Positions 775-2,555 of a DNA stretch of 2,555 bases are shown here, piece by piece; the first letter of the stretch is position 1, and every line of letters starts with the position of its first letter. The stretch comes from a virus (lineage: Duplodnaviria > Heunggongvirae > Uroviricota > Caudoviricetes). The stretch lies in the IMG/VR virus record IMGVR_UViG_2623620506_000010; one strand, 5' to 3'. Under the pieces are notes generated by a model, which was not told where the DNA came from, did no database searches, and saw only the letters and a list, made by a program, of their open reading frames with translations. The translations under genes and the position numbers were made by a program.

Positions 775-1101
775 TCATGCAGCAAAATTAAGAAAGCCTA
801 ATCCCAAATCTTCCGCCAGCTTCTTGGCTTTCTTAAGCCAGTGATTGCGCCAATCTTTACGCTCAGGAGGAAGCTGTTTCGTTGCGTCATAGACCATTTC
901 GAGCCACTCATTCCAAAGGATGAGAAGACGGCGCGAACTCCCTTCCTCGCCTAAAACCTCGCGCTCAGTAGTTAGAGGGATGAGTCGACGCTCTACCAAC
1001 TTTCTTACGGCTGATTCGGTCTTACCTGTGCGGCGGGAAAACTCATCGACGGTGATGGGGTCTGGGATCTTAAACAATGCCCTCAATAGTTCTTCATTCA
1101 T
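775..1101 (-). CDS. cox: Cox/Apl-like HTH excisionase and early-promoter regulator (108 aa)
   Basis: Divergent from the C-type repressor across a 95-bp spacer, as in P2. Start chosen at ATG complement 1099-1101 (MNEELL...) because it has a strong SD AGGGAGA (complement 1109-1115) and a 7-nt spacer; the track ORF extends to 1170 but that start has no SD and would consume the switch region. The segment ITVDEFSRRTGKTESAVRKLVERRLIPL resembles the P2 Cox HTH region as I recall it (IPYQEFAKLIGKSTGAVRRMIDKGKLPVI), and a C-terminal W/L-rich region ends in DLGLG like P2 Cox ...WLGLG. Confidence 0.75.
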   Translation of the reverse strand: MNEELLRALFKIPDPITVDEFSRRTGKTESAVRKLVERRLIPLTTEREVLGEEGSSRRLLILWNEWLEMVYDATKQLPPERKDWRNHWLKKAKKLAEDLGLGFLNFAA

Positions 1102-1196
1102 GTGATAATCTCCCTGTTTGGGGTATTTCTTGCGACGGATGCCCCAAATCAAACTCATTTGTATAAACATTAATACAGACGTTGGAGAATTGCAAC
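1102..1196. promoter_or_regulatory. Lysis-lysogeny switch region: promoters and operators for the divergent C and cox transcripts
   Basis: The only noncoding DNA between the two divergent start codons, so both promoters must lie in or overlap this 95 bp. It contains both SD sequences (cox at complement 1109-1115, C at 1184-1188) and an AT-rich core at 1159-1177 with -10-like hexamers on both strands. Exact promoter positions are not determinable from sequence alone. Confidence 0.6.
1160..1177. promoter_or_regulatory. Candidate operator: imperfect inverted repeat TGTAT-N8-ATACA centred on palindromic ATTAAT
   Basis: Read directly: TGTAT at 1160-1164 and its reverse complement ATACA at 1173-1177, 8-bp spacer AAACATTA, with the palindrome ATTAAT at 1169-1174 near the centre. 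Lies in the AT-rich middle of the switch region. Only 5-bp arms, so chance is not excluded. Confidence 0.3.
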
Positions 1197-1565: not shown

Positions 1566-2555
1566 ATGGCAATTAAAGCACTCGATGGTGGACGGTATAA
1601 AGTGGATGTTAGACCGCGTGGCCGAAGTGGACGTCGGATTCAGCGGATTTTTAAGAAAAAGGCAGATGCAGTGGCCTTTGAGCGCTATGTTCTCAGCCAC
1701 ATGCACGATAAGGAATGGCTTGAAAAGCCAACAGAGCAACGTCATCTCTCAGATCTGCTTCCGTTATGGTGGGAATTGGGTGGACGCAATAAGCCATATG
1801 CTAACGGCGTTCTAACCAGATTGAAAAAAATCATCAAAGAAATGAATGATCCAAGGGTTAGCCAGATTAATGCTCGTTTCATGGCAGCTTATCGAAGCTC
1901 CCGTTTATCCTTGGGAGTAAAAGAGTCTACTGTTCGGCGTGACGAGTCGGATCTCGGGGGAATGTTTACACTCCTGGCAAATGCCGGAGAATTTCACGGA
2001 GAAAATCCACTCCGCGCCCTCCCCTCTTTGAAACGAAAATCACCCGAAATGACGTACCTCACTACGGAAGAAATCGCCAAATTGCTGGATGCAGTAAGCG
2101 GTGATGCTCGGCGGATTACGCTACTTTGTCTCAGTACTGGGGCGAGATGGGGAGAAGCGAAAAATCTGCGCGCGGAACACATCATCAATAATCGCGTGAC
2201 GTTTAACAAAACTAAAAACGGAAAAGTTCGAATTATTCCTGTCTCTGATGAAGTTGTTAGTGAGATCAAAACAAAGAAATCCGGCCTTTTGTTTGACGTC
2301 AATTATGAGGAATATCGCAAGGTGCTTCGCAGTGTTAAGCCAGACCTACCAAAAGGACAGGCTGTACATGTTCTACGCCATACCTTTGCTGCTCACTTTA
2401 TGATTAATGGAGGAAATATACTTACGCTCCAGCGAATTATGGGGCACGCCACGATCCAGCAAACTATGACCTATGCGCACCTCGCTCCTGATTTCCTCCA
2501 GGACGCAATTTCACTTAATCCGTTAAAAGGAGGCATCCACATTTCATCCACATAA
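1566..2555 (+). CDS. int: P2-family tyrosine recombinase (phage integrase, 329 aa)
   Basis: Start at ATG 1566 (MAIKALDGGRYKVDVRPRG...) with SD GGAGG at 1553-1557 and an 8-nt spacer; the N-terminus matches P2 Int as I recall it (MAIKKLDDGRYEVDIRPTG...). Conserved tyrosine-recombinase catalytic residues in the expected order: Arg in TGARWGEA (codon 2145-2147), His-x-x-Arg in HVLRH (2367-2378), catalytic Tyr in TMTYAHL (2472-2474). Stop TAA at 2553-2555. Confidence 0.95.
   Translation: MAIKALDGGRYKVDVRPRGRSGRRIQRIFKKKADAVAFERYVLSHMHDKEWLEKPTEQRHLSDLLPLWWELGGRNKPYANGVLTRLKKIIKEMNDPRVSQINARFMAAYRSSRLSLGVKESTVRRDESDLGGMFTLLANAGEFHGENPLRALPSLKRKSPEMTYLTTEEIAKLLDAVSGDARRITLLCLSTGARWGEAKNLRAEHIINNRVTFNKTKNGKVRIIPVSDEVVSEIKTKKSGLLFDVNYEEYRKVLRSVKPDLPKGQAVHVLRHTFAAHFMINGGNILTLQRIMGHATIQQTMTYAHLAPDFLQDAISLNPLKGGIHISST

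Follow-up and report, generated by a model that had tools for sequence, protein, structure and literature searches.

The closest described counterparts of the locus analyzed here are the switches of phages P2, WPhi, and 186. In P2 and WPhi, transcripts from the early promoter, Pe, and the repressor promoter, Pc, converge, with a mapped overlap of ca. 35 nt in the former and 82 nt in the latter (PMC1904263); the experimentally derived promoters occupy the two ends of the spacer and point toward one another (PMC1904263, PMC5009727, PMC3936717). In the P2 annotation, given here in the orientation of our sequence, cox starts at 786 and is followed by the Pc -10 TATAAT (824-829), operator half-site O2 (868-875), the Pe -10 (879-884), half-site O1 (890-897), and the Pe -35 TTGACA (902-907), which overlaps the C start at 901. 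The binding target of C proteins is a pair of direct repeats that varies by immunity class in sequence, in position, and in spacing, which is 22, 26 or 34 bp (PMC1904268). P2 Cox binds arrays of cox boxes over Pc and at att (PMC3936717), and the Cox protein of WPhi is reported to recognize, between Pe and Pc, a direct repeat of 12 nt (PMC5009727). In 186, the first lytic gene product, Apl, has a second role as excisionase and binds at the switch as well as at att.

The DNA considered here is a 2,555-nt stretch of a Caudoviricetes virus (IMG/VR record IMGVR_UViG_2623620506_000010), referred to below in its full length as the window. It contains open reading frames (ORFs) at 117-404, 415-756, and 775-1101 on the minus strand and at 1197-1499 and 1566-2555 on the plus strand. 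Positions 1101 and 1197 mark two divergent start codons, read directly from the sequence as CAT at 1099-1101 and ATG at 1197-1199, and the spacer between them comprises 95 bp (1102-1196). An initial annotation of the window had given the same distance, and RefSeq agrees with it: a 98%-identical copy from Escherichia coli (L001) is annotated with the same two starts, its coding sequences at 6775-7101 (minus strand) and 7197-7499 (plus strand) being equivalent to window positions 775-1101 and 1197-1499. We consider it likely that this spacer controls a switch of the P2 type and carries a convergent pair of promoters, Pe and Pc, together with operators for C and Cox (Table 1).

Table 1. Genes and predicted control elements of the switch region, in window coordinates; promoters, operator half-sites and hairpin arms are candidates.
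Feature	Position	Strand	Basis
cox-like gene, 108 aa	775-1101	-	Phage_Cox, PDB 4LHF, P2 Cox alignment, RefSeq start
Candidate Pc, extended -10 TG-a-TAATCT, predicted start ca. 1118	1103-1111	+	Conservation; pattern unique in the window
cox Shine-Dalgarno GGGAGA, 7 nt ahead of ATG	1109-1114	-	Columns 1109-1113 near-invariant in 21 loci
Left box TTTGGGGTAT, candidate Cox operator half and left hairpin arm	1117-1126	+	Inverted-repeat search; columns 1118-1127 near-invariant
Right box, inverted: ATGCCCCAAA (+) = TTTGGGGCAT (-)	1139-1148	-	22 bp centre to centre from left box
Candidate C half-site O2, core CATTTGT (1156-1162)	1153-1166		Lag-20 direct repeat; spans predicted Pe start ca. 1160
Predicted Pe -10 TAATGT	1167-1172	-	17 nt from TTGCAA; A1167 and T1171 invariant
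Candidate C half-site O1, core CAGACGT (1176-1182)	1173-1186		Lag-20 direct repeat; between Pe -10 and -35
C Shine-Dalgarno GGAGA, 8 nt ahead of ATG	1184-1188	+	G1185 invariant
Predicted Pe -35 TTGCAA, 1 nt from C start codon	1190-1195	-	GCAA 1192-1195 invariant (20/20); TT 1190-1191 in 13-15/20
C repressor gene, 100 aa	1197-1499	+	P2 C homology; Pfam HTH_31 and HTH_3
P2-type tyrosine integrase gene (int), same orientation as C	1566-2555	+	Pfam Int_N (5e-23), Phage_integrase (4e-17)

The 108-aa product of the leftward gene scores 25.3 bits against Pfam Phage_Cox, slightly under the cutoff of 27.5, and matches P2 Cox (PDB 4LHF) over residues 12-88 in a phmmer search (E = 1.7e-4). Its alignment with P2 Cox extends through the recognition helix, and precomputed Phage_Cox matches are recorded for homologs of the product. 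Judged by these matches, it is a Cox homolog, encoded divergently from C. Its gene stands first in the early operon, the place that P2-type switches give to cox, which codes for a winged-HTH regulator and excisionase. Extension of the gene upstream into the spacer, as a 131-aa ORF (775-1170), was discarded because the relatives and RefSeq start at 1101. By tblastn, the 100-aa product of the rightward gene shares 52% identity with P2 C along its entire length, and it matches PDB 2L49/2XCJ over residues 2-100 (E = 4.8e-25); by homology, it is a full-length counterpart of the P2 immunity repressor. The int gene that follows is labelled "phage integrase" in RefSeq, and beyond it lies the att region beside pheL. 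Downstream of cox, the ORFs encode a DUF4761 protein and then a 95-aa product without a Pfam match; no CII homolog was detected among the window ORFs on this side. A search of the whole window against Rfam at E<=1 found no RNA families.

In E. coli, the module forms the end of a prophage inserted beside pheL, and full-length copies of it are present in 124 of 5,426 complete genomes of this species; strains 89-3156, FHI_NMBU_10, and UMNF18 are examples of carriers of the prophage. The left 766 bp of the window are 96% identical to P88/Xuanwuvirus phages, and the cox-C-int module gave no match to phage records by megablast; the nearest phage for the module is Klebsiella phage 3LV2017, at 70% DNA identity. 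For comparison we assembled ca. 20 switch regions whose C proteins are 57-91% identical to that of the window, many of them enterobacterial (Enterobacterales) and drawn from Klebsiella, Raoultella, Serratia, Yersinia, Citrobacter, Providencia, Xenorhabdus, Erwinia, Sodalis, Symbiopectobacterium, and metagenomes. These loci are phylogenetically non-independent. Spacer length is 91-100 bp across all of the related switch regions, in several genera. The spacer is conserved in its cox-proximal half and hypervariable in its C-proximal half, apart from a few columns and the final 13 bp.

Those few columns bear on the early promoter. With 20 loci anchored on the C start, every column of the hypervariable stretch 1146-1183 varies except A1167 and T1171 (20/20 each). 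On the minus strand, these two correspond to T(-7) and A(-11) of a promoter, and the GCAA at 1192-1195 becomes the TTGC of its -35 hexamer. TTGC, A(-11), and T(-7) are the most informative positions of sigma-70 promoters. When the loci are scored with a simple position weight matrix (PWM), a minus-strand promoter at one and the same offset (C-25) is among the top three matches in 15 of the 20 and is the best match in 10. Within the window, the pattern TTGCAA-N17-TAnnnT occurs once, at 1167-1195 on the minus strand, versus 0.04 occurrences expected. The predicted start, at ca. 1160, is an A on the minus strand, and column 1160 is T in 15/20 loci. A scan for the sigma-70 consensus at 9/12 matches gave no match in the spacer, and in the window alone the candidate has 7/12 consensus matches and a PWM score of 6.9; the support for Pe comes from comparison with relatives, not from the window sequence by itself. 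Conservation strongly backs the assignment of TTGCAA-17-TAATGT as Pe, reading leftward into cox. The initial annotation had proposed just this pair as its minus-strand promoter, and its four hexamers (TATAAA at 1162-1167, TAATAC at 1171-1176, TTGCAA, and TAATGT) are all found at the positions it gave, with a gap of exactly 17 nt between the last two.

The same annotation had counted ca. 27 bp for the two Shine-Dalgarno (SD) sequences and their spacers, which we measure at 28 bp, and had reasoned that they leave too little room for two independent back-to-back promoters. That reasoning fails, because the best-conserved promoter elements sit within the SD-to-ATG stretches: the Pe -35 lies 1 nt from the C ATG, and the extended -10 of the candidate Pc overlaps the cox SD and its spacer.

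This extended -10 matches the TGNTANNNT pattern (TGnTAnnnT), which has a single match in the whole window, at 1103-1111. Among 21 loci anchored on cox, T1103 and T1111 are invariant (21/21) and G1104, T1106, and A1107 are each kept in 20/21, while the intervening position 1105 varies freely (A in 14, C in 3, G in 4) and the wobble positions of the adjacent cox codons are near random. Since the cox SD also explains the conservation of 1109-1113, only the TG and TA (1103-1107) are specific for a promoter. The extended -10 is among the top three plus-strand PWM matches in 13/20 relatives, at cox+3/+5; in the window itself it falls outside the top three, with a hexamer of 3/6 plus the TG, and no -35 is recognizable. 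Its placement at the cox-proximal end of the spacer agrees with P2 and WPhi. A neighboring hexamer, GATAAT at 1104-1109 with TG at 1101-1102, was dropped because A1105 (14/21) and G1102 (17/21) are less well kept than the near-invariant TG at 1103-1104 and TA at 1106-1107. Most likely, Pc is a -35-independent extended -10 promoter, TGaTAATCT, that reads rightward into C and int.

Two other placements of Pc have to be weighed against this one. The initial annotation had also put forward TATAAA and TAATAC on the plus strand as promoter elements. Because transcription from them would begin at ca. 1174-1183, rightward of the Pe start (ca. 1160), they imply back-to-back promoters and so contradict the face-to-face model of the very annotation that proposed them. 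In a back-to-back switch, in the manner of lambda PR/PRM, Pc would be TATAAA (1162-1167, with a -35 ATGCCC at 1139-1144) or TAATAC (1171-1176), transcription of C would start at ca. 1174-1183 and that of cox at ca. 1160, the -10 regions would interlock, and one bound repressor would control both promoters. The score of ATGCCC-17-TATAAA in the window (PWM 6.7) is about equal to that of Pe; it is the best plus-strand match in the spacers of the window, L028, and L030, and a plus-strand match stands at a similar offset in L005, L034, L009, and L018. AT-rich -10 regions are frequently -10-like on both strands. T(-7) ranks with the best-conserved bases of promoters, yet at this position TATAAA has an A in 20/20 loci and TAATAC a C in 16/20; the A(-11) of TATAAA (column 1163) is an A in only 11/20. 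In the copy from E. coli 89-3156, moreover, the spacer departs from that of the window in one respect only, which is that TATAAA reads TACAAA. A back-to-back arrangement would also leave the conserved TGnTAAT beside cox unexplained, and mapping in P2 and WPhi has shown their promoters to converge (PMC1904263). We regard it as very improbable, and from the elements described above we infer a face-to-face geometry in the window.

Within a convergent arrangement, Pc might still lie elsewhere, either in the first codons of cox or further left (e.g., -10 AATAGT, 1085), or with GTGATA (1102-1107) as its -35 and TATTTC (1124-1129) as its -10, in which case the transcripts would overlap by ca. 25 nt or ca. 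65 nt instead of ca. 43 nt. The last of these has a precedent in WPhi, whose Pc extends from the cox start codon, with a -35 that abuts the cox ATG and a -10 ca. 24 nt into the spacer. CTGGGA-17-AATAGT is among the plus-strand matches in the window, and GTGATA-16-TATTAC/G among those in L032, L037, L041, and L003. The TATTnn hexamer, however, has the T at -7 (column 1129) in only 3/21 loci, AATAGT at 1085 lies within coding sequence, where conservation is inseparable from codon constraint, and both options score below the conserved extended -10 across loci. We judge a displaced Pc distinctly unlikely and keep the extended -10 at 1103-1111 as the candidate.

For the C protein, 1153-1166 and 1173-1186 are only candidate half-sites. 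They form a direct repeat with a lag of 20 around the Pe -10 that begins at a constant offset across loci and averages 5.68/14 matches over 19 loci, versus ca. 3.9 at other lags. The repeat is well matched in L028 (10/14), L039 (9/14), L003 (8/14), and L030 (8/14); in the window it is poorly matched (6/14), and a competing lag-12 repeat reaches 8/14 in the window's subgroup. An alternative C operator would be a 16-18-bp palindrome, GTATAAACATTAATAC, centred on the Pe -10 with arms TGTAT-N8-ATACA. It is kept in some relatives (TGAAT-N8-ATTCA) and falls to 4/8 pairs in others; because of this unevenness, and because P2-type C proteins bind direct repeats, we did not adopt it.

The other repeated element of the spacer is a pair of inverted boxes (TTGGGGTAT) located at the predicted Pc start. 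Of 22 spacers, 19 have this pair as their best inverted repeat, namely that of the window and 18 of 21 related ones, with intervening loops that vary in sequence and in length (6-17 nt). In relatives, a further copy adjoins the int stop codon: the 9-mer of the box, at <=2 mismatches, occurs 3-24 nt past the int stop in 13/18 loci, versus an expectation of 0.11 per 60 nt. Of these 13 copies, 12 are minus-strand ones, and the loci span several distinct int/att modules. The box motif is constant across groups with differing C recognition helices and tracks the conserved Cox helix; between immunity groups that differ in C helix 3, the box region stays constant and the Pe-proximal half of the spacer varies with C. 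Because the motif occurs at both the switch and att, as a Cox/Apl-type protein requires, we read the inverted TTTGGGGTAT/ATGCCCCAAA pair as, probably, a Cox operator. An Int arm site was considered and rejected, since the att-side copy of the box is single, separate GTGGGTTTT repeats (in L001) resemble arm sites, and the box is constant where Cox is conserved.

The inverted repeat at 1117-1148 might instead act as RNA, forming a 5' stem-loop of the C-int mRNA that stabilizes the transcript or modulates its antisense pairing with the cox leader. The plus-strand RNA of the pair folds at -16.2 kcal/mol (z = -3.5), a stability reached by 0/200 shuffles, and the minus strand at -10.1 kcal/mol (z = -2.2). 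The hairpin starts at the predicted Pc +1, and both P2 and WPhi have an inverted repeat, of unrelated sequence, just past the Pc -10 or start. In 18/22 loci the fold is more stable on the plus strand than on the minus strand, because the mismatches there are G.U. The arms, however, are conserved in sequence rather than covarying: RNAalifold on the 22 spacers returned 3 pairs and 0 compensatory changes, in a weak test for which MAFFT left the variable loop ungapped. The lone 9-mer beside the int stop, being incapable of forming a hairpin, points to recognition by a protein. A function as RNA in place of the Cox operator seems unlikely to us. The two roles are compatible, and the Cox operator may have an additional, possible role as a 5' hairpin on the C-int mRNA. 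We also entertain, as a tentative and somewhat doubtful reading, a compressed switch in which the promoter cores lie in the rival initiation regions, Cox acts through the palindromic pair of 10-bp boxes instead of directional arrays like those of P2, and the same pair is the 5'-terminal hairpin of the C-int transcript. If true, a single element used as both DNA and RNA would be central to the convergent overlap in a widespread clade of P2-like prophages.

Built on the observed gene homologies, element positions, and conservation, the model that we favor makes predictions of promoter activity, start sites, protein-repeat pairing, and interference. Pe (predicted start ca. 1160) and Pc (ca. 1118) would face each other and yield leaders complementary over ca. 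43 nt, with the core of each promoter inside the translation-initiation region of the rival gene. C would bind the repeats flanking the Pe -10 (ca. 1153-1166 and 1173-1186) and turn Pe off. Cox would bind the inverted TTTGGGGTAT boxes (1117-1126 and 1139-1148) at the Pc start and turn Pc off, and would also bind the box copy that adjoins int at the attachment site, directing excision. Active transcription from Pe would cross Pc, adding transcriptional interference.

By this model, a common immunity module of E. coli prophages, with relatives in Klebsiella, Serratia, Yersinia, Citrobacter, Providencia, and Xenorhabdus, would follow the convergent-promoter design of P2. The predicted coordinates of Pe, Pc, and the candidate C and Cox operators should help in annotating prophage switches, in predicting heteroimmunity classes, and in designing induction and reporter experiments; the understanding of how P2-type switches work is unchanged.

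Klebsiella phage 3LV2017 (Reginaelenavirus) has the same cox-spacer-C module as the window, with a C protein 63% identical, a Cox protein 69% identical, and a spacer of 94 bp, and both carry the TGATAATCT and TTTGGGGTA/TACCCC elements. Its C, however, belongs to another specificity group, with a different helix 3, and its repeats are two copies of CATTTGRA 20 bp apart. The initial annotation had likened the region to P2 and 186 together, a comparison that stands for P2, given the P2-type C, Cox, and Int proteins, and fails for 186 at the protein level. The pR and pL promoters of 186 do resemble the model, as face-to-face lytic and lysogenic promoters with overlapping transcripts and documented transcriptional interference. 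Unlike the window, 186 has a larger, 186-like CI repressor (PMC1904268) and a cII gene with an establishment promoter (PMC3448106); membership in the 186 type is ruled out, as the repressor here is a 100-aa P2-type C, and the window ORFs downstream of cox include no detected cII.

WPhi resembles the predicted layout of the window in that each promoter abuts the start codon of the opposite gene (annotation AJ245959) and that a repeat pair, the 12-nt TCCCTTCTAGGT/TCCTTTCTAGGG in WPhi, lies just after the Pc start; in both, there are two boxes ca. 20-22 bp apart and not an array of six or more. WPhi differs in its spacer of 152 bp, its overlap of 82 nt, and the 34 bp between its C half-sites. The boxes are inverted in the window, whereas descriptions of the Cox sites in P2 and WPhi give direct or directional repeats.

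With P2, the window shares the order cox, spacer, C, int, with int co-oriented with C and next to att. The predicted Pe of the window agrees with that of P2 in having its -35 next to the C start codon, 17 nt away from the -10. The candidate C half-sites of the window would flank the Pe -10 about two helical turns (20 bp) apart, much as P2 O1/O2 do at 22 bp (PMC1904268). The candidate Pc would, like that of P2, be cox-proximal and convergent, with a predicted overlap of ca. 43 nt versus ca. 35 nt in P2, and in both an inverted repeat comes directly after the Pc -10. The spacer measures 95 bp in the window and 114 bp in P2, and ca. 30 bp are missing on the cox side, which would place the window's Pc -10 on the cox ribosome-binding stretch and any -35 inside cox. 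The candidate Pc of the window resembles an extended -10 promoter, whereas the Pc -10 of P2 is TATAAT. The window lacks the P2 cox boxes, TTAAA(G/C)NCA, and has the two inverted TTTGGGGTAT boxes instead; its Cox is 108 aa long versus 91 aa in P2, and its downstream early genes are of the P88/Xuanwuvirus type, unlike those of P2. Its candidate operator sequence is unlike that of P2, which would make it a different immunity class. As a whole, the switch reads as an ordinary new example of the known P2 design, from which it departs only in its compact layout and its different operator sequences.

The window has a mosaic joint at 760-775. Positions 1-766 are 96% identical to P88/Xuanwuvirus phages, and from position 775 onward, across cox, C and int, no phage record was matched by megablast; given this pairing, the immunity-integration module appears, judging from sequence, to be swapped as one cassette, with the DUF4761/cox boundary as the point of exchange. 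The mechanical list of open reading frames included a 131-aa version of cox (775-1170), in which an ATG at 1170, within the spacer, serves as an upstream start; this start was ruled out by the relatives and RefSeq, which place the real one at 1101. Within the spacer, the window and the copy of its prophage in E. coli 89-3156 differ solely by T1164C. This substitution leaves the minus-strand -10 unaffected and weakens the plus-strand TATAAA, which the initial annotation had read as a candidate promoter element.

Recombination inside the repressor gene, between its DNA-binding and dimerisation parts, is suggested by the sequence of the E. coli C protein P0056, because its N-terminal 55 amino acids resemble Klebsiella group-B repressors and its C-terminal 45 are identical to those of the window's C (alignment A1). 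The Providencia sp. MAG locus L010 (NZ_JBEBNT010000003.1, 835-1981) has one 93-bp switch spacer followed by three tandem full-length C paralogues. Their recognition-helix regions all differ and correspond to the three specificity groups found in relatives; through these paralogues, the prophage could provide immunity to several heteroimmune phages. Among Providencia and Xenorhabdus relatives, an ORF downstream of C shows homology only to C residues 46-100, the dimerisation/C-terminal half, and lacks the HTH. This ORF may be a remnant; alternatively, it could be a dominant-negative or anti-repressor-like partner.

Repressor paralogues and C-terminal-half ORFs in related loci
Locus	Feature	Coordinates	Remark
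L010	C paralogue 1	928-1221	full-length
L010	C paralogue 2	1218-1484	full-length
L010	C paralogue 3	1501-1797	full-length
L010	C fragment, C-terminal-only	1859-1981	after the three paralogues
L007	C-half ORF	1860-1982	
L008	C-half ORF	1438-1593	
L013	C-half ORF	1860-1982	
L014	C-half ORF	1087-1251	
L015	C-half ORF	1869-1994	

In the E. coli copy L001, GTGGGTTTT occurs three times, twice direct and once inverted, between the int stop and pheL (8557-8650). These repeats are probably Int arm-type sites, and between them the GGGG box, the candidate Cox operator, recurs in degenerate form as TAACCCCCAC.

Directly after the -10 or start of Pc, the repressor/integrase promoter, P2 carries the inverted repeat TTTAGTGC/GCACTAAA (L002, 832-839/850-857) and WPhi carries CCAGTCCCT/AGGGACTGG (L042, 1870-1836). 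We found no discussion of such a repeat in the literature examined on P2-type switches. An inverted repeat just past the Pc -10 or start seems to belong to the conserved architecture of these switches. The repeat sequences of P2, WPhi and the window are mutually unrelated.
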